Source: Macrostomum lignano (Eukaryota). From it: a stretch of 64,000 nucleotides of DNA. A program made the translations under genes and the position numbers. Shown one piece after another: positions 45,805 through 64,000 of the stretch (positions are counted from its first letter, which is position 1; each line of letters begins with the position of its first letter). The stretch is from the NCBI GenBank assembly GCA_002269645.1, contig NIVC01000356.1, positions 592,124-656,123 of the forward strand. The letters run 5' to 3'. The notes beneath the pieces were generated by a model. It was given only the letters and a program-made list of their open reading frames with translations. It was not told the DNA's origin and searched no databases.

Positions 45805-47045
45805 CGACGCCAGGGGGCCTTCAGAGTTCGGCAGTTCATCGTGCCGAGTCTGAGGCGGCCACCTGGTACAGCTGGGGCCAGATGGAGGTTGGCCTCGTGG
45901 TCCCCGGCGCCACCCGGCCGATCCATAGTTGAAATAGCAGGGACTGGGGGGCGACAGGCGCCTGGCCGCGCCACGGAGTCGCCCTCGCCGGTTGCGCTCG
46001 CGCCGCCGCTCAGTGCGACGCTGCGCGCTGCGCCGACCTCTGCGAGTCCCTGCTGTGCTGAACTTTGCTGCCGCAGCCGAAGCGCGGCCGTCCGAGCCAA
46101 CCGAGGTCATCCGCGGCCTGGTGATCTGGCCGCGATGCCAGGAAATGTCAGCACTATTTGCACGGGTGTGCAAATATAATGGCTCTGCAAAAATAATGGC
46201 TCTGCAAATATAATGGTTACCACCTTCAGCTGGACCTCGTCTCGCCGCAGGAGGTTTCTATCGTGGCTGAGCCGGGGCTCCACTCTGAGGACCTCGGAGC
46301 CGGCTGGAGCCTCCTGTACACGTCGGCAGATAACCGCGGCCTGGGCGGTGTCGGCGTACTGATCGGACCGCGCCTCCAGCAGAGCGTGCACTGGATCTCG
46401 CTGTCCCCGCGACTGATGCGGGTCGACCTGCGACTGCGCGCCGGCTGCATCCGGCTGTTCTGCACGTATGCACCCACCGCTGCTCATCCCGAGGAGGCTC
46501 GTGCCTTCTTCGACTTCCTGGCTGGGCAGCTGGAAGAGGTGCCAAACCGCGACATGCTGGCAGGGCTCGGAGACCTGAACGCAGTCCCGCGGAGGTCCGA
46601 GCGCTCGCCCTTTGTCGCGGGACGCGAGAACGCCAACACCGATGCACTGGAAGACCTGCTTGACCGGCTGGACCTGGTGTCCGCGAACACCCAGTTCCGG
46701 AAGCCCCTGCCCACCTGGTCACCTTTGCGGGCTGCAAGAGAAGGCGGCCGGAACGCACGCAGGCGGAACGTCAAGAGGAGACTGGTGCAACTCGATCATG
46801 CGCTCGCGAGCGCCGCCGCGTCACCAACTGCGACACCACGGCTCCGCTGGCTCTCTGGTCAGACCATCGACTTCTGCTCTGCGACTTACGGCTCTATCGA
46901 CCGCCAAAGCAGCGGCAACGGCGCTACTATTGCGCTCTGTCGGACACCCGCGTCAAGCGTCATGCAATTCACGGGCGTCTAATTCGTCGGGGCGCTTGGA
47001 GACCAGCGCGAGGCGGAGTATTCCGACATTCAAGTATTCAGCCAA
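45805..47045. pseudogene. Degenerate non-LTR retrotransposon fragment (AP endonuclease only) with an inverted 5' segment
   Basis: LRLGTMNCRTL (APE N-terminus) on - at about 45815-45865. The continuation LQLD..QE...GGVG...YAPT...GDLNA...LDH...SDH is on + from about 46222. No RT present. Confidence 0.8.
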
Positions 47046-47867: not shown

Positions 47868-50800
47868 TCAGGCTTCACCGCAAGTGCGTTTGTGTCGCGC
47901 CATGTTTGTCGCCGATAACGTTCTTCCGCACTTGTCGCATTCTGCTGTCTTCCTTCGGTATTTTCTTGCTCTTCTCTTGTTCTCCTCCATCTCCGGTGGA
48001 TTGTGGTGTTGTTCTTTACATGTCTTTCTGTGCCTCGCTAGGTTCGATTTTACGATTGTGCTTCCACATTGCTGACATTTTACTCTTGACGCATCTATTT
48101 CCGTCTCGCCTTGGCACACCTTCTCATGGTTTGCCAGGGTCGCTTCCTGTCGGAACTCCTTGTCGCATTTGTGGCATCTGAATTTCACCGGCTCTTTAAA
48201 CACGCGATGCATCCTCTTTTGGTGGATGGTTAGTCCGCCCTTGCTTTTACACACTTTGCCGCAGAGTTCGTATTCGCATTTGAAGCCATCTCCAACCTCT
48301 CTCGGGTTCGTTTTTACGTGGTACCGTTCTTGACTTCGTTCGATCAGGCTGTTGTTACTGTCCGTCTTGGCCTTTTTTCCTTGCACTCTCTCCCACTCTT
48401 GTAGGTGTACAGTCCGCTGGTGTACTACGTTCCGCCAGTGTTTCCTGTCTAGAACGTGGCGTTCGATGTCTTGCGGTTCCATACCGGCTTCCCGGATGAG
48501 GCGCTTCCAGTAGGATATGGTGTTGTTTTTCCGTTTTTTGCGCTTAGGGATCCTTTCCAGGCCTCTGTACCACCCTAATACGGCTTGCTTTATTTGTCTG
48601 TCGTCTTCCATCCGTAGGACGTGGCCAATCCTTTTTAGGTGACTTTTCTCAATCTTTGTTCTTAATGACACAACACCTAGTTCGTTGCGGATATCTTGCA
48701 TATTTACTCCTAGGCTTTCCATTTCGCGCAGCGGTTCCATTCTCTTGTTGGACCAAATGTTGCGGTATGTTTTGTCGATGAACTGTTGCATTTTCTTGAT
48801 TTCGCCGAGCAGGAACGGGCGGGTGTTCGCATGGAACAGGAGTACACTTTCCACGCACGCCTCGACCACTTTAGCTTGTGTGGTCTTTTTCAGGCGGCAT
48901 CGATGGAACCTTTTCCTGATCGCATTCCACGCTTTGGCGGCTCTCTGGATTCTTTGCTGTGTGTCGTATCTCCTATCCATCCACGACCCTAGGATGCGAG
49001 TTTTACCTCCGACGGATGTTCCTAGGGCCATCTCCTCCTGTTTCTCGTCATTTGTCAGTTCTTCGAACTTCTTCATATTCTCTTTGGTCGTTGTTAGGCT
49101 TCTCGTCAGTTCTCTGCCATTGCCTAGGATGGTGGTGTCGTCTGCAAAGAGCGATGAGGTCCACTTGACCGTTCGCATCTCCGAGTTGTACTGGTTGATT
49201 CTCTGAGGTGGCAAGGAGTGTCCAGGTAAGTACTTCCATTCCACCCCGCAGCTTAATCCTCTGCTGGCCGCTTCTGTCTCCCGAGTTTCTTCCGCTTTCC
49301 TGATGCTCGCCTGGTGGTAGATGTTAAATAATATCGGGGAAGTTGGGCATCCCTCGCGTAAGCCTCGCTCGGGTAGCCATGTTTCGCTTGATTTCTCCTT
49401 GCCTTGCACTTTATACGCGGTATGTTCATGCAGGTCTTTCAGTTTTTCGATCGTCTCTTGCGGCATCTTGTACGCTTGGAGGATTCCCCACAGGATCGGC
49501 TTGCACACTCTCGGATATGCCTTACGGAGGTCTAGGAGGATTGCCGTTTCTGTGTCTTCGATGTTGCAGTCTCCTGATGCTCTTTTTGTTTCCAGGTACT
49601 CGGCAATGTCCTCGTGCATCCTGGTGAATATCTGTGCGTTGTCCGCCGTCGATCTTCCACTTCGGAAGCCGTTCTGGTTGTCATCTAGCGCTCCTATCAC
49701 TTCTGCCCAATTCCGGATTCTGGTAGCCAGAATGCGGGCTAGTATTCTGCTGAGCATAGGTAATAGGCAGATTCCTCTGTAGTTATTCATGTCTGCTCGG
49801 TCTCCCTTCTTGAATAATGGAATAATGAGTCCAATTTTCTCGTTGTCATTCCATTTGTGCGCTCGCTCTTCAAACAGAAAGCGGATCCTTGCATACAGTT
49901 CTTTACGTACTGCGTCTGGGGCGATTCTAATGTATCTGATACGAAGTTCGTCCTCCCCGGGACTTCGGTCTTTCATTTCTTTAATGGCTGCTTCTATTTC
50001 AAGGTCCGTTGGGACTGTCGTCAGTTGTGTTCTTGTCTTTTCCGTATCTTCCTGTTCCTTCATGGTTTTGATTGATCTGATCAGTTCGGCTGTTTCGGTT
50101 TCCGGGTTTTCCAATCTAGTCCCTTGGATTCTTTCCAAATGGTTCTTGAAGTCATCTTCGTCAAAGTTGGTGTCTGTTCCGCTGTTGTTCCACTTTCCTC
50201 GCTTGTCCAACATCCTTAATTTCTCATAGACCACTGCGATCTGGCCTCTATCCGCGGCATTTCTGCATTCCTCAGCGATTGCGTCCCACCAGTTTTCCTC
50301 CCATTCCGCGAGCTTCTTTTTTATCTTTTTTCGGATAGTTGTAGTCGCTAGGCGGGCTAGGGTCGTCGCCGCCGAGGTGGGGTCTTCTCTGACGCATGCG
50401 TTGCGATGGGCCAGCGTTTCTGCCAGCTCTCTTTGTTGTGCCTCGTGTTCGTCCAGGTGGGGGGCCATCCACGGGTTCGTTACTCGTGTCACCGTGCCGC
50501 ATACGTGCCTTGCACTGTCGATGATTGAGTTTTGAACGTCTGTCCATTTCATGTCTGTGAGGTTCCTGTCCTGCTTCTCTCTTAGTTCTTCGAATCTTGT
50601 TAGTATTTCTTTTTTTAACTCAGATGCCTTGTTCTCGTCGTGGAGTTTCCTCCAGTCGATGTTCTTCCGCCTGCGTCTCGTCTGGTCCTTGACGTACTTG
50701 TTCCGTGTCCAGCCCCGAATTATGACGGTTTTGGGCAGGTGGTCCGACAAGTTGCACTTGTTGTGGTTCTTTATCGTTTTGACCAGGCGGTGTCTGTCCT

Positions 50801-51920
50801 GCGCGCGAGTTATGAAGCCGTCTATCTCATACCACGTGCCGGTGCTTGGATTTCTCCAGGTTCCCCGGTTTTTTGACTTGTGGAACGAGTTGATCCAGGC
50901 TAGATCATTTGTCACTAACCAGTTTGCGAGGTCTTCGCCCTGCTGGTTGGTCAGTGCTAAGCCAAACTTTCCTCGATGTTGCGCGTCTGTGCTTTCAAAT
51001 TTGCCAATCTGTGCGTTCATGTCACCGCCAATGATGATTGGTTTGTTCTTTCTTTCATTATGAATGTAACGTTCCAGGGTGTTTCTGAGCTCTGCTAGTT
51101 CCGTTTCGTAGTCCGGAGTGCCTCTAACTGGGCAGTACACGCTGATCAATGTCGCGTCGTATATTTCTATCATGATCGCTCTGTTCGTAATCTTCTTTTT
51201 TGATCCGCTGTCCTTCCACGTCTGGTACAATTCCTGGTTTAGGATGATGCCTGTTTTCTTGCCGTGAATCAGGAATGAATTTTGTTTCGGTTGGTGGTAA
51301 CTTCTTATTCCGTCTGACGGTGCCGATAACTCCGAGATGAGGGCTACCTCCCAATTCTCACTCATAATCTTTTTTGCGATCTCTCCAAAACGCGTGCCGA
51401 ACACGTTTGCCCGCTGGACATTCCATGTTGTTATTCTCAGCTCGTTGTTTAATGTTTCTCTGCGTTTGTTAATCTTCTTCGTTCTTCTTGTTCCACGGCG
51501 TCGGGTTCTTCTGATTAGTCTGCTTTTCTTCTCTTTTTGGGTTTTCGGTCGTTTTGTGCTTTTTCTTGGGTTTTCGGATTCTTTCTTTGGTCTTTCCTTC
51601 CTGTTTGGTCCTGGGTTCTTCTCTACTGTCGTCAGCTGTGCTTTCACTTCCGCCGACCTTTGTTTCCGGCTTGGTCTTGTGCGGCTCTGCTGTTCCTCTA
51701 GCTCTCTACCTTTGTGCTGTCCACTGGTTTTTGCCTGGTTAATCTCGGTACCCAGGTCGGCTACTTCTGGGTACCACGAGTGAAAAGGGCCGGTGTCGTC
51801 GTACTGGCTTCCGCCAGTGGCTTCGATCCATGGTCCCTTCCGTTTGCTCCCTTCTTTGCCAAGACTTTTTCGGGTCTTGTCCACTGGCCACCTCGTGAAG
51901 GTGGGGGAACAATCGGCCAG
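47868..51920 (-). CDS. RTE polyprotein: 2A-like peptide, AP endonuclease, reverse transcriptase, four C-terminal Zn fingers (one C2H2, three C2HC)
   Basis: VEKNPGP; ITTWNV, GGDMNA, EIDGF, LSDH (APE); SPGED, NYRGICLL, DLRKAY, REGCPTSP, FADD (RT); IGHVLRMEDDR and DRKHWR (RTE C-terminus). No stops. Confidence 0.92.
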   Translation of the reverse strand: MADCSPTFTRWPVDKTRKSLGKEGSKRKGPWIEATGGSQYDDTGPFHSWYPEVADLGTEINQAKTSGQHKGRELEEQQSRTRPSRKQRSAEVKAQLTTVEKNPGPNRKERPKKESENPRKSTKRPKTQKEKKSRLIRRTRRRGTRRTKKINKRRETLNNELRITTWNVQRANVFGTRFGEIAKKIMSENWEVALISELSAPSDGIRSYHQPKQNSFLIHGKKTGIILNQELYQTWKDSGSKKKITNRAIMIEIYDATLISVYCPVRGTPDYETELAELRNTLERYIHNERKNKPIIIGGDMNAQIGKFESTDAQHRGKFGLALTNQQGEDLANWLVTNDLAWINSFHKSKNRGTWRNPSTGTWYEIDGFITRAQDRHRLVKTIKNHNKCNLSDHLPKTVIIRGWTRNKYVKDQTRRRRKNIDWRKLHDENKASELKKEILTRFEELREKQDRNLTDMKWTDVQNSIIDSARHVCGTVTRVTNPWMAPHLDEHEAQQRELAETLAHRNACVREDPTSAATTLARLATTTIRKKIKKKLAEWEENWWDAIAEECRNAADRGQIAVVYEKLRMLDKRGKWNNSGTDTNFDEDDFKNHLERIQGTRLENPETETAELIRSIKTMKEQEDTEKTRTQLTTVPTDLEIEAAIKEMKDRSPGEDELRIRYIRIAPDAVRKELYARIRFLFEERAHKWNDNEKIGLIIPLFKKGDRADMNNYRGICLLPMLSRILARILATRIRNWAEVIGALDDNQNGFRSGRSTADNAQIFTRMHEDIAEYLETKRASGDCNIEDTETAILLDLRKAYPRVCKPILWGILQAYKMPQETIEKLKDLHEHTAYKVQGKEKSSETWLPERGLREGCPTSPILFNIYHQASIRKAEETRETEAASRGLSCGVEWKYLPGHSLPPQRINQYNSEMRTVKWTSSLFADDTTILGNGRELTRSLTTTKENMKKFEELTNDEKQEEMALGTSVGGKTRILGSWMDRRYDTQQRIQRAAKAWNAIRKRFHRCRLKKTTQAKVVEACVESVLLFHANTRPFLLGEIKKMQQFIDKTYRNIWSNKRMEPLREMESLGVNMQDIRNELGVVSLRTKIEKSHLKRIGHVLRMEDDRQIKQAVLGWYRGLERIPKRKKRKNNTISYWKRLIREAGMEPQDIERHVLDRKHWRNVVHQRTVHLQEWERVQGKKAKTDSNNSLIERSQERYHVKTNPREVGDGFKCEYELCGKVCKSKGGLTIHQKRMHRVFKEPVKFRCHKCDKEFRQEATLANHEKVCQGETEIDASRVKCQQCGSTIVKSNLARHRKTCKEQHHNPPEMEENKRRARKYRRKTAECDKCGRTLSATNMARHKRTCGEA

Positions 51921-51921
51921 C
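51846..51921 (-). ncRNA. Compact HDV-like self-cleaving ribozyme candidate at the RTE 5' end
   Basis: P1 GCUGGCC/GGCCAGU; P2 GUUCCC/GGGAGC; P3 ACC/GGU; L3 UUCACGA; P1.1 GG; P4 CAAGAC/GUCUUG; J4/2 CAAA. Confidence 0.82.
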
Positions 51922-51999
51922 TTTTGTAGACGTCCCCTCGTCCCATCGTCCCATCGTCCCCTCAAATTAGAGTGACCCCAATTAAGTAATTTCTGATTC

Positions 52000-54900
52000 T
52001 GCAGTCTGAGAAAGTTAATAATTTGCTTCGTTACTTCTTAGTAAAAAGTGACTATATGTTTAGATAAAATTTAACGTCAAACGTTTGACTAAATTTTATT
52101 ACAAAGCACTTTTGTTTCGCTACTTCTTTGTTATTCTTTAATGAGGCGCGATAATATCAAATAATCGTTTTCTAAGAACGCAAGAATAGAATGTAGCAAG
52201 ATTATGAATTAATAGAATTTGGTAACCGCTGCGGTCTGACTTCTGAAATATTCTCATTCAAGAATTTTCAACCCTGCTCTGAATTAATGAATTAGCCTAT
52301 CAAAAGTTGAGGATTTCGATTCATATTTTTCTAAGTTTGATTTATTAGCAACAATATTCAATAACCAATAATTCGCCATGGAGTTTTATAATCAATTATC
52401 AAAAACACTCAATGAATATTTTGTTTTCTATTGAGATCTAGGCCTAGTGTAATTCGTAAGTAAAGTCCATTATTTTTTGTTTATTGAAAGTATTAAGCTA
52501 GACCTGAATCTAAGAGTAAATTATTGAACTTACTCTTGCATCTTGCATCAATAAGATATCTAAATTGGGTTCTGGTTCTTTAAATATTGTATCTAATTTT
52601 GATCAAGAACTGCACTTAGTTTATCATTTCATTTTTATATTTTTATAATTTAATTTTATGAGTTGTTAATTTATGTTTTAAATATATTTTACTATCTCAA
52701 TTTGCATATTATTTCATTTAATCTTTCAAAAAATTATGCTTAAGAGAAGACAATGGTATAATTATAAATAAGACTTCTTTTTTAGTAGTTTAAGTCTTAA
52801 TTATAGCACAATAATGACAATATATTATAAAGAGATATAAAAAAGAGATAGATATTTTTACATTTAGGTTTTTCAATGCATGCTAAATTTGCTAACATAA
52901 AAAATGAAGTTATTGGAATATTAAAAATCTTTTATCTTTTATTTGATATGGCCCTATAAGCTTTTGACAGCAAAAGTTTTGTACATGAAATAAAATATGT
53001 TAATTAAACTAGGTTTAGATCCCAAAAATTGAATAGAATCATTGTTGTGTATGGACTTTTGGTTTAGTTTAGCAAATGCACTAATGCTTCCCTTCTTTTG
53101 TCTATAGTCTAGGGTACAATATTTTATTTTTTAAGAGCCAAAGGCTAACAGTATTACAAAGGGCAAGCAAGACATGCGCCAGCTAGAGGCAAATAAAGCT
53201 TGTGAACAGCTCGTATTTTAAATAATGCTTCTTTGACTTGACTTTGATGTCAGATGGTAGCCTGGAGGCAATAGTCGGTATAAAAGCAGAAGAAGAGGAC
53301 ATAATAATCCTAGATCATTACAACGCTATATTAATTTTACTTTGCTTTTGATTATTTATTTATTCAAAAATAAATAAATAATAAATAAAATTCTTATATC
53401 TAAAGCTCAGCAGACCAATCAATTGATCAATCAATTGACTGGCCAGGTTTAATATGAATCTCCTTTTTATTACTCTAAAAAAATTAAAACTCAAAAGACA
53501 ATGCATCATTTTTGCCCTTCTCTAAATTTCCTACAAATTAAACAAGAAAACATATTTATTTATTTGACTTAAGTAGTGGCATATAGAGTTAGCCCTACCA
53601 AAAGCAAAAGGGTTGCATGTTAAAGAGAATTCCTAATAGTACTTTTGTATATGACCTTGGATTAAAATTTGGCAGGGATATAAATTGAGATTTTGGTTGA
53701 CTAAAAGTCAATAAATTTATTCAAATTATGTATATATGCTAGGTAATTATGTATATCATTGCTATTACTTATATATAATATATATATAAACTGTATTTGC
53801 ATAGAAATTGCTTAGTTTTTGCTTATTCAAAGCAAGTGATTTTTTAGGCTGCTAGTGTTTGTAATAGTATTTTCTACCATAGAAGACAAAAAATTATTTA
53901 AAATATTTAACCATTTTTAATCAGTTGATATCTTAGCTTGTATCTTTCTATACATAGTTATATTAATGCAAAACATTTAGCCTAGTCTAATTGATTCAAG
54001 AATGAAGCATGATGCATGTATAAGCATAATGCAAGAATGATAGGAAACAATATCAACAAACGATGTCAATGTTAGAATTTTAGCTATGATACACTTGTCT
54101 TTGGTCTAGTAGAGTGTTTAATTATAATTTGGACAAAGCCTTTTACATGAATCTAGTTGGCTATCTAAGTGATAGTAGAATAGTAAAATGAATTTAATTG
54201 CAAATAAATATAACTGAATATAATATAGTGCAATATAATATGAAGTATATTAGTTTAATGGTACATTAATACCCATGCTTTAAAGGCATTAATGGGAAAA
54301 TCAGAGGGTGCCATTAGGTGCCCAAGGATTTCTCATTAACGCCTGCAAAGCATGGGTATTACTATTATTGTGCCATAGACATTTGTGTCCTTGACAAAGT
54401 AGGACAAAATAATTGGGCATTAAATGTCATTAACTGCCTATTAAATTGCATTAAAGTAAGTTTGACATAGACAATTGGGTGTTAAATGTCATTAACTGCC
54501 TGCTAATTTGCATTAAAGTAAGTTTAAAGCATTAAAGTCCTGCAAGCAGGCTTAAATGCAGTCTATGGCATTAAAAGGCAAGAATAAGTTCCAAAGGTCA
54601 TGGTACAATGTTTCCTTATAACACAGGTTTAGCAAAATATTTTTTAAATATGAAACTAATGATTCTTATCTATTGGTATATTTTAAAATGTCTTTGATCT
54701 TATATTCAACAAATAGTCTAGAAGCTTAGTTTTGTAAATTATTTTAGCTATATTTTAAATTGATAAAAACAATATGATAGTACTAAAATTGTATTATTCA
54801 TATTATCTATATCAATTTGTAAGTTTTATATTATTACATTCTCAATTAAAACATTGCTGTGTACCTCATAAGTTCAAGTAGGTTCCTTATAATTTGCAAG

Positions 54901-55699: not shown

Positions 55700-56805
<1,106 letters not shown>

Positions 56806-57184
56806 TATTTGTCTAGTACTATTCACTACTACTTGCTATTTTATAAGATTTTATTTATACAGTGTCAGTAGTATTATTAAATTACACGCACCCCACATTT
56901 TTACATGTAAAAATGAATATAGTCCCCACCTACACTCGAACTGTAATACGCCTCCGTCAGTTCGAGCTAACGAACGAAACGCAACTCGCCCAAGCCGGCG
57001 TTCGATAAGGTACAAATCTTAGCTTTCTTATCTTAATACGACACACTAACCAACACTAGCGTTCTCCCAAAAGAAATATTGAATTCAAAGTCCAATTCTT
57101 CCTTAGCCTTGGCCATTTATTTCTGCAAAGTATATTTGACTGAATTCGCCGCAAGTCCATACGCATTAAAAACGAGTAAGCAAA

Positions 57185-57730
57185 TTACCGCAATCTAATA
57201 CGCAGATAGTTCATCGCGAAAGAACGCAAACGATTATAACAGCGCTTAAACAGATTCTCGGCGCCACCACCACTAATCATGCTCGCTAGAAAATCCTTCA
57301 AACCACCACCACGATGCAGTTTAAAGTATAAATAAAACAAAACCCATATACCACAGTGCAGACTTGTTGGTTCTTGAATAGCAAAACGCGAATATTCCCA
57401 ATTTCCCCCTCCACAATTCCGTATAAACCACCGACGTATTAACTCACATGGATTTAACCCCAAGGAATCGAAATACTCTCCCTTCCTAGAGCCCCTCCTA
57501 CCCAACCTAAAACCCCCCACCCATAACAAAACCCAATGAGAACCCGGCAAATTTGAAGTATCGGTATTCACGATCAGAAAATAATGCCTTCTGTCTCTCG
57601 GGATTCGCGGGATACTACTCAACAAATCGACAGGAAAAATACCCAAAAAACAAACGTCTTTAAAACCGTTACATAGAATAATCACAACACGTTGCAAGAA
57701 CAAGTTCGTTACACCTTCGCCTCGCCTCAT
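57185..57730 (-). CDS. Adenain-like cysteine protease
   Basis: IVNTD...GSHWV (His), YFDSLG (Asp), IQ...HCG (Gln/Cys). The ATG at 57730 overlaps the MCP stop (ATGA). Confidence 0.9.
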   Translation of the reverse strand: MRRGEGVTNLFLQRVVIILCNGFKDVCFLGIFPVDLLSSIPRIPRDRRHYFLIVNTDTSNLPGSHWVLLWVGGFRLGRRGSRKGEYFDSLGLNPCELIRRWFIRNCGGGNWEYSRFAIQEPTSLHCGIWVLFYLYFKLHRGGGLKDFLASMISGGGAENLFKRCYNRLRSFAMNYLRIRLR

Positions 57731-59049
57731 TTCCAAGCGGTTCCTGGCACAACGTCCCGCAGTTCGGTAATCTGTAGTTGCTTGTCGAAAACACCACCGA
57801 AAATAACGTTATAGACCTCCGCTGTAGCCGTTCCAAAACGCATCTCCAGTCGGACATTCCCTTCCTTATATAATTGTACCGCCGGCGCAACTCCCCCGTC
57901 AGATCCTAACGAATACGCGAGTATCGTATACCCTCCGTTGTAGTCCGCCATCGAGAACCCCAAATCCCGTCCTTGTAAATACAAACCCAGTTGTTGACGC
58001 AGAGTTGTATACTCCTTTGCACAATCCCCTGTGAAGTCGAATTGACTAGGCCGTGTCGGTACCGCCTCACCATTTACGTAAACTCCAACGCTGATCAAAT
58101 TCGCATGCACGAAATTGAACGGATTTGTCGCCAGACTTCCATTAAATGCAGTATTTCCAACGACTACCACCAGCAAAAGACGTGGCACTCCGCTCGGAAA
58201 CAGATTTTCGTGCGTATGGCTTAACGACCCTTGCGGTATTGTGAACGTACCCAATGATAAACTGCGATGAGGGTACAAGGCATTATGGGTCTTCAAACCA
58301 TGTGCATGGGCTCCAATCACACTGGCAGATGGCTGAACATACCGCAAACGAAGCTCCGCACTCTGAATCTCAACCTCGTAATCCTTTAACACTGCCTCAC
58401 CAATCTGTGCGGCACTTAACACGAATTTGCTCTTTGCCGGTAGTAACTTTATCCGCAAAGGCGTCTTTGACAACAAATACCGTGGCTGACGAAATAGATC
58501 CAAAAACAAAGGCCCTGAAACCGTACAAGTTCTCCCACCCGCAATTAGTGCCTGTCGCTTCACTCGCCCAACGTTCGCGACGCCGGTGGCATTCATTTTT
58601 CCAGCAGTGTCCTTGTAAAATCCCCAGGCAGCCAATCCGCCGTCTTGTCCCAACCGACCATACTCCAAAAGCGTCAGAAGCATGGCCTTGTACGGATACA
58701 TGAAGCTCCCGCCTTCAACGACCGTATCTCCTATCCGCAATTGCACGTCTTCGAACAGCGTACTCACCACCATGTTATTCAGACAGACATAGTTTTTCGC
58801 AGCATCCACAGCCCCTCCACTCTCGTCTACTACTCGGATTCCAACAGTTAGAACTGTTTCTTGTAAGTCGACATACAAATCTCCAGCCGGTACAATCTCG
58901 AACTCAATTGGCCCTCCTTGCGTAATCCCATGTTGAGGCTGTATATCCGTGTAGCGACTGTCCACAACACTGAATTGTACTGGTGGGCTGTCAAATAACG
59001 TCAACTCACTTTTCAATCCAGCGACGTCAGGCCCCAACAACTGATCCAT
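57727..59049 (-). CDS. Double jelly-roll major capsid protein (Polinton PY / hexon-like)
   Basis: KSELTLF..PPVQ, GPIEFEI, DLYVDLQET, LF..VQLRI, YPYKAM..LL.YG, P.LLLV, NPFNF, TILAYSL; intact 440 aa. Confidence 0.9.
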   Translation of the reverse strand: MDQLLGPDVAGLKSELTLFDSPPVQFSVVDSRYTDIQPQHGITQGGPIEFEIVPAGDLYVDLQETVLTVGIRVVDESGGAVDAAKNYVCLNNMVVSTLFEDVQLRIGDTVVEGGSFMYPYKAMLLTLLEYGRLGQDGGLAAWGFYKDTAGKMNATGVANVGRVKRQALIAGGRTCTVSGPLFLDLFRQPRYLLSKTPLRIKLLPAKSKFVLSAAQIGEAVLKDYEVEIQSAELRLRYVQPSASVIGAHAHGLKTHNALYPHRSLSLGTFTIPQGSLSHTHENLFPSGVPRLLLVVVVGNTAFNGSLATNPFNFVHANLISVGVYVNGEAVPTRPSQFDFTGDCAKEYTTLRQQLGLYLQGRDLGFSMADYNGGYTILAYSLGSDGGVAPAVQLYKEGNVRLEMRFGTATAEVYNVIFGGVFDKQLQITELRDVVPGTAWK

Positions 59050-59442
59050 CTACTTGCCAAACAAACTGAATAACTTTTTAGTCGTGGCGCTCGGCTTTTT
59101 CTTTTTACGTATGCGTCTAACTCGCCGACCACGTCCAACCTGTTTTTTTACCGCAGGTGTCTTTCTGCTTATACCCTTTTTCCTGACTCGTCGTCGCTTA
59201 ACCACAACTGGTCCATCAGTAGTCGTCAATCTACGTTTCTTACCCATTCCAATCGTCTTCTTCAGGAAGCTTAAACCGCCCTCTACTAAATCCTTCCGAG
59301 CTCTACGTAGCACGGGATATATCACTCTCTCTGTTAAATTCGTCAAATATCCGTATCCCTCGTACACAGGTATCGAACTCGACCCACCACCCGTCCGCGG
59401 CTGTGTACTAGGTCCCGAATAGAATGCAAAAACCGGATCCAT
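59050..59442 (-). CDS. Small basic putative core/DNA-condensing protein
   Basis: N-terminal GGG..IPVYEGYG, amphipathic helix, R/K-rich tail with QVGRG; position and pattern as in Polinton small core ORFs. Confidence 0.6.
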   Translation of the reverse strand: MDPVFAFYSGPSTQPRTGGGSSSIPVYEGYGYLTNLTERVIYPVLRRARKDLVEGGLSFLKKTIGMGKKRRLTTTDGPVVVKRRRVRKKGISRKTPAVKKQVGRGRRVRRIRKKKKPSATTKKLFSLFGK

Positions 59443-59471
59443 GAATGCCGAGCGAAACTATACGTCAAAAT

Positions 59472-60614
59472 CTACTTAAAGTGCTTTGCTAATACCCGTG
59501 CTGTCTCTTTATCTAGATCTGATTCAGCCAACCACTGACCTCTCGAGTCGGGCATTCCCTCCCACTTGACAAAATATCGCCTGCCCTTCTTCCCCATACG
59601 CTCAACACGCTCGACCCGATCAATTTTAACAACCTCCGCCTCAGGTTCAGCCACTAGAAGCAGTTCACCTTGGTTGAATCGACCCTCCAACACTGTCGAA
59701 TCGTCCTCGGGGTCTAACAGACCATAAGACGGTGGCTTCGTAGAATACACCCGATGAATTCGATACACCCTATTACTCCATGTCGTTGTGTAACCCTTCT
59801 CAAATTTTCCCTTTTGACGTGCAAGTCGTACCCAATCACCAACCTTAAAACGCGGAATAGGCCTCACATCGTCGCCATACAACTCCTCCCACACCATGCC
59901 CTGCAGATGGCCATCCGCACTCACATCAATGGGGCTACGACCATTTAAACTGCGGTGTGGAGAGTTATTCAACGCAAGCTCTAATTTTGGTAGAACATCA
60001 AACCACCGGGCCAGATTTCGAGTCCGAAATAGTCGTAGTAATCGCTCCTTCACGGTGCGTATCAATCGCTCAGCCATGCTCGCTTTGTAGGTACTCTGAC
60101 TTACGAAAAATCGTACGCCCTCACGCTTTAACATCGACTGAGTTTCTCGCCCAAGAAACTCTCGACCAGCATCGCCTTGTAAGTACAGCGGTTTAAACCC
60201 CGTGCGGAATATCTCATACAATACACGGCTCACCTCACTTGGCTTCTTCGTCTTCAAAGCTCTCAAGCGAGCCAACCTAGTGAAACAGTCGACTAATACG
60301 AGGATGTACCTGTAACCACGGTTTTCGTCCTGATATTGCGGTAAGTCTGCCAAATCAATCTGCATTTGAAATTTTGCAACGGGCGGTAGTTGTATTTTCG
60401 GAGTTTTGAACTTCCGATTCGACTTCTGGAACAGATGTATCTCCTTCGTCCTACGCACCCACTTGTCAACAACAGCCTTGGCTTTTTTTTGCGTTAACTC
60501 CGGATACCTCCGCCTCAAAACTCGTATAAATTGCTTCTTATTACCACTAAACGCAGTAGGGCGTTCCAAGTCGAAAAATGCCACGTCCAGAAACTTAAAA
60601 AAAATCGCTTCCAT
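59472..60614 (-). CDS. Retroviral-type (rve) integrase with C-terminal chromodomain-like module
   Basis: QIDLAD, LQGDAGREF, AERLIRTVK (DDE); FKVGD.VR, KFEKGYT..WS; YFVKWEG......W. Confidence 0.92.
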   Translation of the reverse strand: MEAIFFKFLDVAFFDLERPTAFSGNKKQFIRVLRRRYPELTQKKAKAVVDKWVRRTKEIHLFQKSNRKFKTPKIQLPPVAKFQMQIDLADLPQYQDENRGYRYILVLVDCFTRLARLRALKTKKPSEVSRVLYEIFRTGFKPLYLQGDAGREFLGRETQSMLKREGVRFFVSQSTYKASMAERLIRTVKERLLRLFRTRNLARWFDVLPKLELALNNSPHRSLNGRSPIDVSADGHLQGMVWEELYGDDVRPIPRFKVGDWVRLARQKGKFEKGYTTTWSNRVYRIHRVYSTKPPSYGLLDPEDDSTVLEGRFNQGELLLVAEPEAEVVKIDRVERVERMGKKGRRYFVKWEGMPDSRGQWLAESDLDKETARVLAKHFK

Positions 60615-60641
60615 CCTCCGTATTAGCGGCTCTCCAAATTT

Positions 60642-60815
60642 TTATGATGCAGAACCCACATTAGTATTGCAACAGTTAAAACTTGCCTTTACCGTTACGT
60701 CTCCGTCAGGCTCCTCTGCGCGCAGTACGCGTTCCAATAAATTCGCAATGCAACCACCCTCCCCCAAAAAACAAATTCTAAAACGCTTGTACAACCACTG
60801 AAACACATTCGCCAT
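60642..60815 (-). CDS. 57-aa small ORF, below the ORF track threshold
   Basis: MANVFQWLYKRFRICFLGEGGCIANLLERVLRAEEPDGDVTVKASFNCCNTNVGSAS*; fills the gap between two viral genes on the same strand. Confidence 0.5.
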   Translation of the reverse strand: MANVFQWLYKRFRICFLGEGGCIANLLERVLRAEEPDGDVTVKASFNCCNTNVGSAS

Positions 60816-60858
60816 CCCCAGACTCGATATATTTCACGTAAAATACAATGCTTATACA

Positions 60859-61530
60859 TTACGCTAGAGTCTCATAATCTTCCAAGGCTTGCAAGTCCCC
60901 ACCGCGCGACTCTGACTCGGGAGTAGGTTCCATGGGTGTTCCTTCCTCCAGAACGTTTCGCATATGCCGCCCTAGCATCGACGGTGGAATTGATTCCCTG
61001 CGAAGCAGTGAGACGAAACGTTCCAGCTCTGCCGCCGGAGGCGATCTCCCTCGTTTCAATGGTTGGTCGCGAGTGACATACTCTACTAGCTCGTCAAAAT
61101 CTCCTCCTCCAATCTCATTCGCAGCACCTGTCAGCCTTGCCTTCAGACGGTCGAAACGTGGTTGTACATTACGGGGGAGTCGCCTCCCCTTCTCGGTCTC
61201 ACCCTCCGTCGGGCCATCATGACCAACGGATGAGCGAACCTCTGGCGGGGTCTCACCATTCTTATTGTACAGAGACCGCGTTTGTAGCAACCGACTCTCC
61301 AAATCAGTTCTTTCCAACTGTGCGGTTGTAGGCTGCAGACTAGTCGATTCACCAATCTCCCGGTCAAGCCTATTCATCTCACCTTGCATTTCAACAATAT
61401 TCTTACCCAAAGCGTCCACAGGTCCGTCCAATACTCCCGTCCTTCGCTCATCTTTCGCCGTACATTCCAAATAAGCCTGCAACGGCAGCAAAACCATTCG
61501 CTGAAGAGTTCCTCCTCTATTGACTGGCAT
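60859..61530 (-). CDS. Polinton hypothetical protein (RMVLLP motif, coiled coil)
   Basis: 223-aa ORF whose ATG lies 1 nt after the upstream stop. Confidence 0.65.
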   Translation of the reverse strand: MPVNRGGTLQRMVLLPLQAYLECTAKDERRTGVLDGPVDALGKNIVEMQGEMNRLDREIGESTSLQPTTAQLERTDLESRLLQTRSLYNKNGETPPEVRSSVGHDGPTEGETEKGRRLPRNVQPRFDRLKARLTGAANEIGGGDFDELVEYVTRDQPLKRGRSPPAAELERFVSLLRRESIPPSMLGRHMRNVLEEGTPMEPTPESESRGGDLQALEDYETLA

Positions 61531-61531
61531 A

Positions 61532-61969
61532 TTACCTACGCCGTCCGGCCCGAATTGCTCGAACTAGATTTGCCGTCCCCGCAGCCGTACCGGCCAATCC
61601 CGATGTAATCCCTAGAGCCGTGCCAATGGCTGGCAAAGCAGAAATTATCGGAGCAAGAAACGGCAGGAAACCACCACGCTGTACCAAAATTTCCTTCCTG
61701 GCTCTAGTTGATTTTTTCTCCTTCAACAATTCTTGTATCGGTTTCCGATAGCGTTCTAAACGTTTCTTGTCACACGACTTTAACGGCACGCGTCCTTTTA
61801 CGATATTCAAAAGAAACTCAACCAGGCAACGCACCTCGCCCGGACTTAAACTTCGCAGAAATCGCTTGCGCTGGTCCAATCCCCGAAGCCTCGCGACAAC
61901 TTGCAATAGGAAGGCACACTGGGACAATGATCGCGCGCTTTGTACGCTCTTTTCTGTCAGCCCGGTCAT
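61532..61969 (-). CDS. Putative virion protein with an adenovirus pX-like C-terminal segment
   Basis: EFLLNIVKGRVPL; LVQRGGFLPFLAPIISALPAIGTALG resembles adenovirus pX MRGGILPLLIPLIAAAIGA. Confidence 0.65.
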   Translation of the reverse strand: MTGLTEKSVQSARSLSQCAFLLQVVARLRGLDQRKRFLRSLSPGEVRCLVEFLLNIVKGRVPLKSCDKKRLERYRKPIQELLKEKKSTRARKEILVQRGGFLPFLAPIISALPAIGTALGITSGLAGTAAGTANLVRAIRAGRRR

Positions 61970-62013
61970 TGTCTATCATGCCTTCTACTGATTCCGACTG
62001 TACTTGCTTATAA

Positions 62014-62970
62014 TCAATCGTCTCGTACCCTGAAGTGCAGCACAGCAATCACATGGCTTCCATCAGGGAAATTCAAATCTTGCCCCCGTTGGTCGGCCAG
62101 ACGAATGGAGATCTCATTAATGTAGCTCCGATTTGTCCGCAAGTAATATGGCGTCTGCAAAGCATTTCCGTCTCGTCGAAATATTCCGTTCTTTTCCTGG
62201 CGAAACTCAACCACGCGAAGTAGCGGAACCTGACGACTTCCAACCATTTGATATTCAACAATGTCGCTATAGCAGTACATGTAAACACTCCGCAGTATCG
62301 CTTCGGGTATTCTATCCAAATAGACCTTCGTCAGACCCCACGCACGATTTTTCCTCCAATACTCAACCACCTCCTTTAACGTATCCCCGGCAGGCCGTAT
62401 TACCTGCGTACTCTTCATCCAGACGGCGAAACCAGGTTCCAAGACAGCACGAAAATCGTACCAATTCGAATCTAATATACCTGCCTCGTCCATTGCATTC
62501 GTTATGTTCGTCCAGGATTCACCCGCCGCATCCGCGGGTTGGGTGCGTCCGTCGTGAGCTGTCAAACCCCACGTACTGAAACCAAAGCATGTCAAAAAAC
62601 TCCTTGGCAGTTCAATGCCCATACGTCGGCTGCCGGAATTTCGCAAATACCAAACATATGCTTTAGTAGCCGGCGTCCACGACAAGTGTACCTCCAAATC
62701 ATCGGCCTGCCAGACCTTACCCAAGAAGACTTCATCTGTTTTCTCGATAATTTTCTCGATGTTGCAATAATATATCACCTTCACCTCTTCTCGAAGTTCC
62801 GCCGAGGAAGTTTCCGCCGGCGGGCTGTTACATAGCAAATCCACCAAAGCCACTTCATACTTCCCAGCCGGCGCTAGATTCAATGGTGTAGTTAGCCGCA
62901 CCCGAAACTCGTGCGCAGAATTGGTCGGATAACTACGATCGTTTGACGGAATAAACACAAAGAAACTCAT
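62014..62970 (-). CDS. Minor capsid protein (penton, Polinton PX)
   Basis: F.V.IPSN...YP.N....FRVRL..PL.L...YEVAL N-terminus; YCYSDIVE...VG....PLLR...Y.......I.EI.I.L.D..G...F C-terminus. Confidence 0.85.
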   Translation of the reverse strand: MSFFVFIPSNDRSYPTNSAHEFRVRLTTPLNLAPAGKYEVALVDLLCNSPPAETSSAELREEVKVIYYCNIEKIIEKTDEVFLGKVWQADDLEVHLSWTPATKAYVWYLRNSGSRRMGIELPRSFLTCFGFSTWGLTAHDGRTQPADAAGESWTNITNAMDEAGILDSNWYDFRAVLEPGFAVWMKSTQVIRPAGDTLKEVVEYWRKNRAWGLTKVYLDRIPEAILRSVYMYCYSDIVEYQMVGSRQVPLLRVVEFRQEKNGIFRRDGNALQTPYYLRTNRSYINEISIRLADQRGQDLNFPDGSHVIAVLHFRVRDD

Positions 62971-63000
62971 AATCTCACCCCATAAGCTGTAGCCGCTTCC

Positions 63001-63732
63001 TCAAAACTTGCTTATAATATCCTCCTCCTTGATAGTCTCCGGACGCATATAAACAACCTGGTGAGTGTCACTCGAAAGACATTCGTCCGTATGCGTATCA
63101 TATCCGGCGTGTCCTGTCGTAAGTCTATGAAGAGATAGCTGAAGGCCTTGTCACCCGTCGCGTCGTCATAAGCCTGCACCAGAAATCTACTAGCTCGGGG
63201 TACATCTGCCGACCCAAATGTTCAACGGCGCTACGATCCCTAACATTTCGGCTTAAACAGATATAACTCGTCGATAAACTTCTTTTTCTTGCCTCAGGAT
63301 CCGCAGGGTCAAACAAATTTTGGCACAAATAAAGACAAGTCAATGGCGTATGATGAGCCAATTTGGTGAATACAGCGGTAAAAGCGCGTTGCTTTGCAAC
63401 TTCACCCTGCAAATCATCAACAACGACTAAATCGTGCGGCTTGAATCTAGCCAACAACTGATCGGGGAATCCCTGTACGAAGTGACATTCGCCACTTCCA
63501 CCCAATGTCCAACATTCTCGAACTCGTTTTTCCTCAGACGAATGTAACTCTGTACCGTGACACCAAATTAGACGCCTTGGTACTACTCGAAACAGACCCA
63601 AGCGCTCCCTTACCAGTCGAAGCACCCATTCACCAGTCGAAGCACCCATTCAGTCTTTCCCGAATTCGAAGGACCTGCGACGATAAACGTCGAGTCATGA
63701 GCAAATCGCAAGTCGAATGTACGCCTGTCCAT
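63001..63732 (-). pseudogene. FtsK/A32-type packaging ATPase with three frameshifts
   Basis: Walker A GPSNSGKT and Walker B VVVDD; FTKLAHH, QNLF. 20-bp tandem duplication at 63612-63651 and apparent 1-bp deletions near 63195 and 63073. Confidence 0.85.
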
Positions 63733-63733
63733 T

Positions 63734-64000
63734 CTAGGCACCCAAACGCTGTTTTACGTTCATAACACGGGATACCAGTTTTGCGGCCAAACGTTCCCCC
63801 CACTTAGTTGTAGGATCCGCAGCAATCTCTCGAGCTCCTGCTTCGAGTTGTTGATCGGCCTTTGAACGCTCTGCCACGTCCGAGTGCTTCTCGTATGCCA
63901 GGTCGTGTAAGAGACACAATTTATCGAGCCGATTCTTCCCAGTATCGCCCCGCGCTAAACGTTCTCTCAATCTGGTCCCGGGGCCGCAGAATTGGTAACC
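63734..64000 (-). CDS. Parvovirus VP1-like phospholipase A2 domain protein (5'-partial)
   Basis: GYQFCGPGT (Ca loop), RLARGD..KNRLD..CLLHDLAY (HD dyad), KAD; frame open to the window edge. Confidence 0.88.
   Translation of the reverse strand, partial: GYQFCGPGTRLRERLARGDTGKNRLDKLCLLHDLAYEKHSDVAERSKADQQLEAGAREIAADPTTKWGERLAAKLVSRVMNVKQRLGA

Follow-up and report, generated by a model that had tools for sequence, protein, structure and literature searches.

The end of a contig from Macrostomum lignano raises the question of what kind of element carries a parvovirus-type phospholipase (PLA2) among capsid genes, and what the enzyme is for. The window is the whole stretch analysed, 64,000 nucleotides of contig NIVC01000356.1, and its last 7.1 kb (56867-64000) are the left part of a Maverick/Polinton of about 20 kb; the end of the contig, which is also the end of the window, cuts off the rest. 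The reading we consider probable is that of a recent Polinton with an Alpha-like polymerase and phospholipase and a Beta/group-1 capsid, in which a stand-alone PLA2 is likely made late, packaged in the particle and used to open the endosome. The flatworm host that the initial annotation had supposed is Macrostomum lignano. The element has all of its genes in the window on one strand:

56861..56866, plus strand: left copy of the 6-bp target-site duplication (TSD), AGTGTC; the 6-mer recurs after the partner end at G000:C1668:42966
56867..56930, plus strand: left terminal inverted repeat (TIR), 64 bp, beginning AGTAGT
57185..57730, minus strand: adenain-type maturation protease (PRO), its start overlapping the MCP stop; GSHWV/YFDS/HCG motifs (His/Asp/Cys)
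57727..59049, minus strand: major capsid protein (MCP), 440 aa, double jelly roll, group-1/Beta type (F54H12.2-like)
59050..59442, minus strand: basic 130-aa protein, 28% K+R, kept in other families
59472..60614, minus strand: rve integrase with C-terminal chromodomain; PF00665 E 5e-7 (below the cut-off), PF00385 E 2e-5, D-D-E motifs
60859..61530, minus strand: conserved 223-aa ORF, 23-37% identity in other families
61532..61969, minus strand: 145-aa basic protein with a C-terminal pX-like segment; Adeno_PX E 1.5e-4, below the cut-off
62014..62970, minus strand: probable minor capsid protein (penton), 318 aa
63001..63732, minus strand: packaging ATPase of the A32/FtsK type; three breaks interrupt its frame in the assembly
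63734..64000, minus strand: last 88 aa of a parvovirus-type PLA2 that stands alone and has no pX tail; the basic N-terminus falls past the end of the contig

The termini and sibling copies show that the element is a Polinton, as initially annotated. The left terminus is exact at 56867, and the TIR there pairs with the right ends of sibling copies at 94-95%. Exact 6-bp TSDs flank six insertions, placing the element at six or more genome sites. Ten of the 11 exact TIR matches form five pairs with exact 6-bp TSDs, and the eleventh has as its partner a left end that has diverged and lies on the same contig. The left ends on C273 and C4741 are not a separate insertion, since their junction is common with C1391. 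The protein-primed polymerase (pPolB), which in the window would lie beyond the contig end, is found in sibling copies. These TIRs, TSDs and an empty site agree with the definition of Maverick/Polinton elements (Eupolintoviridae) in PMC8097293.

The earlier suggestion of a recent integration is also supported. Five copies differ by 0-6 substitutions in 5.1 kb, a near-identity possibly inflated by assembly polishing, with ends scrambled between contigs. Looking for exact matches to the empty site gave none; a reference-based search found two homologous sites at 97%, and AGTGTC is single-copy at the empty site on C282. The insertion is taken to be recent because the copies are so similar and an empty homologous site exists. 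The gene layout is kept across several Macrostomum families whose synonymous sites are saturated, and the element family also encodes TBP-like, dUTPase and deoxynucleoside-kinase genes. Many copies have internal deletions of capsid or polymerase genes. The stretch in the window occurs in 20 of 24 sequencing runs, none recorded as RNA; two runs presumed to be RNA cover it as contigs, which carries no information about expression.

The capsid groups with those of fish and invertebrate group-1 (Beta-type) elements by sequence comparison, so the label "alpha-type" given initially is half right: it suits the polymerase and the PLA2 domain, but neither the capsid nor the tailless PLA2. The predicted MCP fold is a double jelly roll (pLDDT 91). 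By BLAST the protein is 31-35% identical to group-1 capsids of fish, molluscs, echinoderms and corals. It scores 194-241 bits against 11 named animal group-1 capsids and 22-27 bits against four PLA2X-linked capsids, to which it is unrelated by BLAST (E 0.04-0.9), and a 100/100 branch of the MCP tree separates the two groups. PF21738, which a PLA2X-linked capsid matches at 544 bits, is absent from the window's MCP in a Pfam search. A scan of IMG/VR with the MCP found no relative, and a metagenome scan gave only two short, distant loci (24%). Alpha and Beta classes are assigned here through proxies for the Mayetiola and Terrapene references: the MCP does not match the Mayetiola-class hexon of Alphadintovirus as represented by the proxies, and it joins the Terrapene-class (group-1) hexon through F54H12.2-like capsids, which we take, also on the basis of PMC11071296, to be that class.

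The polymerase looks Alpha-like. In sibling copies it matches PF03175 at 75 bits and contains an Endonuclease_7-like insert; its N-terminal part, where an OTU-like domain characterises Alphadintovirus, has no Pfam match. It is 30% identical over 951 aa (E 2e-116) to a PLA2X-linked polymerase that carries this insert too, which would place it in the Alpha (pfam03175-type) class by proxy, 30% being borderline, on the published boundary, in a comparison made with PLA2X-linked polymerase.

The remaining genes include a packaging ATPase, a maturation protease and an rve integrase, as expected of a Maverick/Polinton. The initial annotation described MCP, penton, protease and integrase as intact; their frames are indeed open, and the name penton depends on position and a C-terminal match of 40-70 aa. 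That match consists of a 40-column profile hit (probability 66%) and a separate 69-aa hit, both weak, and a PDB sequence search with the penton alignment gave no match. The ATPase breaks, near 63.07, 63.20 and 63.61 kb (the last a short tandem repeat), are absent from contigs of four of four sequencing runs and are therefore probably assembly errors near the contig end. The ATPase frame is open in three of five near-identical copies and has Walker motifs, and a sibling matches Pox_A32 (E 0.023). PRO matches the ASFV S273R protease weakly (E 0.056) and is 31-34% identical to the proteases of PLA2X loci; the integrase is 32-36% identical to those of IMG/VR adintovirus loci. A Pfam search with the 223-aa ORF found no match. 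The basic 130-aa protein is likely a DNA-binding core protein; we assume that it resembles Maverick PZ/cupiennin, and it is a Cupiennin candidate by position only. A search with the 145-aa protein gave no named homologue. A homologue, P0195, passes the Adeno_PX cut-off; the 145-aa protein itself is 41% identical to P0197 and is presumably a GasderminX-type core protein.

The PLA2 has the motifs of the parvovirus type and lacks the tail of PLA2X. It matches PF08398 (E 5e-8) and has a CGPG loop, an HD motif and a downstream Asp, and the ATPase start follows one base after its stop, in agreement with the earlier description of a Ca loop domain directly upstream of the ATPase. The HD motif had been called a dyad; it comprises the catalytic His and a Ca-binding Asp and is not the catalytic dyad. 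The domain is 48-60% identical to the PLA2 of all nine IMG/VR loci. Those proteins continue for 145-284 aa beyond HDxxY; eight have a pX motif, and the ninth is cut by its contig end. In contrast, Macrostomum PLA2 genes that are unbroken end 52 aa beyond HDxxY in each of the five sequence types seen, and pX is on a separate gene. A PDB sequence search with the PLA2 returned nothing. Amino acid identity among three families is 60-70% at a pS of 0.73-0.86, with similar values for the integrase, and PLA2, MCP, penton and pX are under purifying selection across families. A group I intron in PLA2 was considered and rejected, as there is no Rfam match in six of six loci and the PLA2 frames are uninterrupted. 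GGNCC is not depleted in the window's element (13 against 18.6 expected; shuffle range 9-29).

The genes of the virion module have an upstream sequence in common. Four copies of a box are found in the window:

59166..59173, minus strand: TATAAGCA box, 124 nt upstream of MCP
60849..60856, minus strand: TATAAGCA box, 242 nt upstream of the integrase gene
62005..62012, minus strand: TATAAGCA box, 43 nt upstream of the pX gene
63009..63016, minus strand: TATAAGCA box within the 3' end of the ATPase gene, 46 nt upstream of penton

TATAAGC occurs four times on the coding strand of the window and not on the other, with 0.33 expected. In eight elements, which represent about six independent families and for which several gene starts are projected, TATAAG lies at most 260 nt upstream of penton (8/8), pX (8/8), MCP (7/7), the basic protein (6/7), PLA2 (6/8) and PRO (4/6), against 18% of random windows. 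It does not precede pPolB (0/4), the TBP-like gene (0/4) or a 221-aa gene (0/3). This variant TATA box is restricted to virion genes with some exceptions: it is mostly missing upstream of the ATPase (1/8), the 223-aa gene (2/8) and the integrase (3/8 sampled elements), it is missing before PLA2 in the C889-type family, and it is present before dUTPase in two of six. The nine PLA2X loci have no excess of TATAAG. The element's TBP-like protein has a TBP fold (Z 13.9 and rmsd 3.0 over 169 aligned positions against human TBP) and matches PF00352. Its closest folds are cellular and giant-virus TBPs at 10-20% identity. Judging from the sequences, it likely switches on the virion genes through the box. 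The PLA2 gene stands behind the same box as the capsid genes, which suggests that PLA2 is likely a late-expressed, particle-packaged entry enzyme.

These features can be combined into a proposed life cycle. Insertion is of the integrase type, with a 6-bp duplication, and sibling copies have a protein-primed polymerase. Its divergent TBP-fold protein would recognise the box common to the capsid, penton, pX, basic-protein and PLA2 genes, which the replication genes lack, and would switch on the virion module after replication. The basic N-terminus may carry PLA2 into the core, the protease may trim it, and at entry the enzyme would open the endosomal membrane. The lineage may have arisen by exchange of virion modules, with PLA2 retained from an Alpha-type parent; its pX tail may have been lost because pX already comes from a separate gene of the Beta module.

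Other explanations differ in how much of this they leave standing. A standard alpha-type adintovirus whose entry gene is a canonical PLA2X would account for the Alpha-like polymerase and for the similarity of the PLA2 to PLA2X domains, and PLA2 is characteristic of Alpha modules according to PMC8502044. The capsid evidence and the missing pX tail speak against it, the ATPase is matched in only one of the nine PLA2X loci (25%), and the gene order differs; this reading is largely refuted and very unlikely. Spread inside cells only, as a transposon with capsid genes and PLA2 acting in an intracellular particle or in remodelling of membranes rather than in entry from cell to cell, would suit an element that is known from its genes and that has so many copies with deletions. 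It is improbable given the purifying selection on the virion genes and PLA2 and the one upstream box that they have in common; adintovirus DNA has also co-purified with particles in insect cell work (discussion of PMC8502044, citing its unpublished data). As for the box, host TBP/TFIID could read TATAAG as a plain TATA variant, with the viral TBP-like protein working elsewhere, for example in blocking host transcription. Only one base separates TATAAG from TATAAA, and the viral protein, whose binding to the box is putative, is only 18-20% identical to cellular TBPs. Nevertheless the G of TATAAG is kept across families with saturated synonymous sites, elements without a TBP match have no such box, and the coding strand of the window has no TATAAA (0 against 1.7 expected, not significant alone), so we hold host reading to be rather unlikely.

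The window's own copy adds a further choice. In the assembled sequence, its insertion closes on the far side with another end of the left type; provided that the interior is assembled correctly, this copy would need TBP from sister copies. Instead of a single long-TIR derivative, there could be a tail-to-tail pair of inserted copies, or an interior joined wrongly, which is a real possibility although we doubt it. Each of the five young TSD pairs has its two members on different contigs, and comparison of the inverted arm with that of the window shows differences at 5-6 of 1587 sites, compared with 0-5 of 5124 for other left arms. None of the four runs has a loose end where the joint would fall (near 58449); their contigs drop rare variants. 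Against this, both host junctions are real, judged by the empty site, no right-to-right junction occurs among the 11 TIR matches, and the assembled internal joint, near G000:C1668:41383, has short microhomology. A more far-reaching proposal, which we offer as speculative, is that Macrostomum hosts an active third polintovirus architecture. It would combine an Alpha polymerase, a Beta capsid, a pX-free PLA2 and a self-encoded TBP with a herpesvirus-like late TATAAG programme, and would make infectious particles and copy-back genomes with two left ends, which would integrate and depend on sister-copy TBP and of which the window's copy would be one.

Parts of this architecture are known from other elements. 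PLA2-bearing Polintons have been described, and therefore the finding as first written is ordinary; less ordinary is a trimmed PLA2 under selection inside the module of the other capsid class. The literature presents PLA2X and GasderminX as alternatives, each the entry protein of one of the two capsid classes. Hybrid adintoviruses with an Alpha PolB and a Beta virion module are on record (Parasteatoda type, PMC8502044; TSCL adintovirus 6, 10.64898/2026.07.28.741253) and resemble the Macrostomum element in their PF03175-type polymerase, group-1/Beta-type capsid and small pX-tailed protein. In those hybrids GasderminX and Cupiennin are described as replacing PLA2X, whereas the Macrostomum element retains PLA2 within the module and has the TBP-like, dUTPase and deoxynucleoside-kinase genes as extras. 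The examined part of the PMC8502044 supplement, short of its sequence file, does not mention Macrostomum. PLA2 or TBP in group-1 elements may already be recorded (PMC11426020; supplements; Fig. 2 of 10.64898/2026.06.19.733378). Alphadintovirus (Mayetiola class; group-2 Maverick-Polintons, Eupolintoviridae) is similar in polymerase class, PLA2 domain, integrase, protease, TIR and TSD, but the Macrostomum capsid and ATPase are of the other class, its PLA2 is not fused to pX and its gene order differs. Vertebrate Mavericks/Betadintovirus (group 1; PMC8097293) have similar AGTAGT ends and 6-bp TSDs, and the MCP is 31-32% identical to fish F54H12.2-like proteins; the Macrostomum element differs from them in its Alpha-like polymerase, PLA2, one-strand genes and TBP-like gene.

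Two comparisons lie further afield. The PLA2 of parvovirus VP1u has the same PF08398 domain, GPG loop and HD motif, and by analogy a membrane-opening role is proposed for the Macrostomum enzyme, which is known from sequence and differs in being a small basic protein of its own rather than extending a capsid protein. The TBP mimics of beta- and gamma-herpesviruses (KSHV ORF24; PMC12529657) and the TBPs of NCLDV may offer a functional parallel, a viral TBP fold with a variant TATA before late genes; relative to the herpesviral proteins, the Macrostomum TBP is small and two-lobed and comes without other herpesviral activators. Literature searches at the level of listings found no description of an early/late switch in animal Mavericks. 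The common upstream box is sequence evidence for co-expression of PLA2 and capsid and points to such a switch. With young copies in a laboratory flatworm, the old question whether animal Mavericks form particles becomes approachable by observation alone.

The element under study is a real and young Polinton, of a known kind and in an unusual variant. It begins with AGTAGT, is cut at 64000 by the contig end, and carries all of its genes on the minus strand. The features of this region are as follows.

46197-46982, plus strand: fragment of a second LINE with an APE endonuclease (PF03372, E 6e-4)
47868-52037, minus strand: LINE-type element with an unbroken 1389-codon frame (APE endonuclease, reverse transcriptase, C-terminal C2H2 fingers)
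55704-56808: TATC microsatellite of 1.1 kb, ending 59 bases before the element
56867-64000, minus strand: left 7.1 kb of the element; in its own direction PLA2, ATPase, probable penton, 145-residue pX-tailed protein, 223-residue ORF, integrase, 130-residue basic protein, major capsid protein (MCP), protease, and terminal inverted repeat (TIR)

The microsatellite is also found at empty homologous sites and therefore predates the element. The initial annotation placed a parvovirus-type PLA2 beside the ATPase and listed a capsid gene, and both assignments hold. The PLA2 scores above the PF08398 cut-off and directly precedes the ATPase, while the confident MCP model (pLDDT 91) predicts a double jelly roll matching the capsids of Sputnik (TM 0.65), iridovirus, and PBCV-1. 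The ATPase is divided among three frames. Its three breaks are absent from contigs of all four sequencing runs, and the frame is open in three of five near-identical copies, so the breaks are probably assembly errors.

Copies elsewhere in the genome supply the remainder of the element. A DNA search with the MCP gene, in which 40 of 53 candidates were scored, gave at least 41 matches: five full-length at about 100% identity, one at 95%, some partial, and many at 68-70%. The polymerase and right TIR that were sought beyond the contig end are both present in siblings, two of which extend about 20-21 kb and end in a 64-bp right TIR. Upstream of PLA2 these carry a dUTPase, a pPolB that contains an Endonuclease_7-like insert, and a single ORF in which a TBP domain is combined with a deoxynucleoside kinase. 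Frame breaks vary between copies. MCP is open in five of five and integrase in four of five, pPolB is a single frame in one of the three copies covering it, and the morphogenesis gene set is complete when the copies are taken together. A sibling polymerase carries the database name Macrostomum lignano, confirming the proposed flatworm host.

The insertion sites indicate that integration was recent, as had been proposed. Exact TIR matches comprise six left-type and five right-type ends. Ten of these 11 make five exact 6-bp target-site duplication (TSD) pairs, every one split across different assembled elements, so ends have been swapped between copies in the assembly. The partner of the remaining match is on the same contig and is the diverged left end of an older 95% copy whose capsid genes are deleted. 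The window element has the TSD AGTGTC, and of two homologous host segments lacking the element, one has a single AGTGTC and the other a one-base variant. Left arms of the copies differ by 0-6 substitutions per 5.1 kb, a figure that polishing can lower by homogenising copies. Together with the empty sites, this indicates young insertions.

The far end of the window's own insertion, with the second AGTGTC (C1668:42966), is also left-type. As assembled, the right 6.1 kb is missing and 1.58 kb of the left arm, repeated in inverted orientation, stands in its place, removing the start of the TBP gene. Adenoviruses replicate by strand displacement, and by analogy the preferred reading is that the second left end would be a copy-back product of such replication. 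The rival reading is a tail-to-tail pair of copies or a mis-join. The empty site supports the junctions with host DNA at both ends. The internal joint is known only from the assembly, and four sequencing runs aligned to the window showed no loose end at that point.

The element combines an Alpha-like replication half with a Beta-like virion half. In PMC8502044 (Starrett et al.), Alpha adintoviruses are characterized by a pfam03175-type PolB and PLA2X, a PLA2 with C-terminal pX, and Beta modules by GasderminX and Cupiennin; a 2026 preprint describes phospholipase as common in group 2, the PLA2X-bearing class. Nine IMG/VR loci found via PLA2 served as Alpha proxies. The initial assignment to alpha-type adintoviruses is supported by the PLA2 domain (48-60% identical) and the polymerase (29-31%) and not by the capsid. 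The proxies' capsids gave no match to the Macrostomum MCP, and PF21738 is matched by the one PLA2X-linked capsid tested but not by the Macrostomum protein. The latter is instead 31-35% identical to group-1 animal proteins (fish F54H12.2-like, echinoderm, mollusc, and coral), with which it also groups in a midpoint-rooted tree of 31 rows with 23 of 103 search matches and a long branch to the Alpha set. PLA2X proteins run on into a GG-hydrophobic pX segment in eight of the nine loci, whereas unbroken Macrostomum PLA2 genes end 52 residues past HDxxY and a pX-like segment is on the separate 145-residue gene. PLA2 lies exactly at the border of the two halves, which suggests, without proving, a module crossover immediately behind its domain.

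Parts of this arrangement are known. Hybrids of Alpha PolB and Beta capsid are described in PMC8502044, polymerase swaps in a nematode preprint, and PLA2 in Polintons in PMC3671162 and PMC11296320; PMC12451622 renames the family Eupolintoviridae. The comparison also drew on PMC11071296, PMC8097293, and 10.1101/341131. The passages of PMC11131425 examined mention neither PLA2 nor TATA, and a search of PMC4028283 gave no matches. None of the titles and passages searched describes PLA2 together with a group-1 capsid, or a late box linked to TBP in an animal Maverick.

The PLA2 gene is maintained under selection. All seven further elements examined that keep the module repeat the window's gene order, and the genome has at least 72 PLA2 matches (150 of 315 candidates scored). 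Among three families amino acid identity is 60-70% for PLA2, 75-81% for MCP, 59-67% for integrase, and 62-64% for the pX protein, with synonymous sites near-saturated in all four.

A TBP-like gene is found in all three families checked. In the family of the window's element it shares a frame with the kinase (L008:6871-8289, minus strand, in a sibling), in a second family the kinase is adjacent, and the third has no kinase. The model predicts the TBP fold with its two lobes (Z 13.9 and rmsd 3.0 against human TBP, 169 aligned), and against 1.84 billion representatives only four matches fall below 1e-10, all unnamed. Herpesvirus TBP mimics such as KSHV ORF24 (PMC12529657) served as a comparison, and a figure legend in PMC8502044 mentions TBP for non-animal MELD viruses.

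In the window element the coding strand contains TATAAGC four times and the opposite strand lacks it (0.33 expected). TATAAG was surveyed within 260 nt upstream of genes in eight elements of about six families, with some starts projected from alignments. It precedes penton in 8/8 (at 43-55 nt), pX in 8/8, MCP in 7/7, basic protein in 6/7, PLA2 in 6/8, and protease in 4/6, and it occurs in 18% of random windows. Counts are lower for integrase (3/8), dUTPase (2/6), the 223-residue gene (2/8), and ATPase (1/8), and within this span it is absent before pPolB (0/4), TBP (0/4), and a 221-residue gene (0/3). No excess was seen in nine PLA2X loci without a TBP match. PLA2 thus appears to belong to the capsid genes' putative promoter class. 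Boxed genes lie immediately ahead of ATPase and of the 223-residue gene, both of which may be carried on the transcripts of those genes. The 221-residue ORF (L008:8390-9055, minus strand) is kept in three families and has a folded-looking N-terminal half, an acidic tail, and no Pfam match.

Integrase-type insertion, the morphogenesis set across copies, PLA2 selection, the common box, and the TBP fold are the established parts of a proposed infection cycle. Early expression of pPolB and TBP would be host-driven, and boxed genes would follow in a TBP-dependent late phase. Basic PLA2 and pX proteins may be packaged into the core, the protease would mature the particle, and PLA2 could aid membrane escape like parvovirus VP1u, an analogy drawn for Polinton PLA2 in PMC8502044.

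Several internally deleted copies (L082-L084, L086, L087, L034, L092) have lost the capsid block, have PLA2 joined to MCP or protease fragments, or lack most of pPolB, and the pPolB of the older copy is interrupted by about 5 kb of other DNA (L082:2081-7105). A different Polinton, with integrase and PLA2 about 30% identical, flanks the older copy on contig C1391 on both sides (L080:279-1065, L083:5289-5888), suggesting that this copy inserted into it. Another family's 19.6-kb element on contig C84 (L038:3945 to L036:7526) has AGTAGT TIRs of about 100 bp, and its flanks have no 6-mer in common, suggesting that its ends were swapped in assembly.
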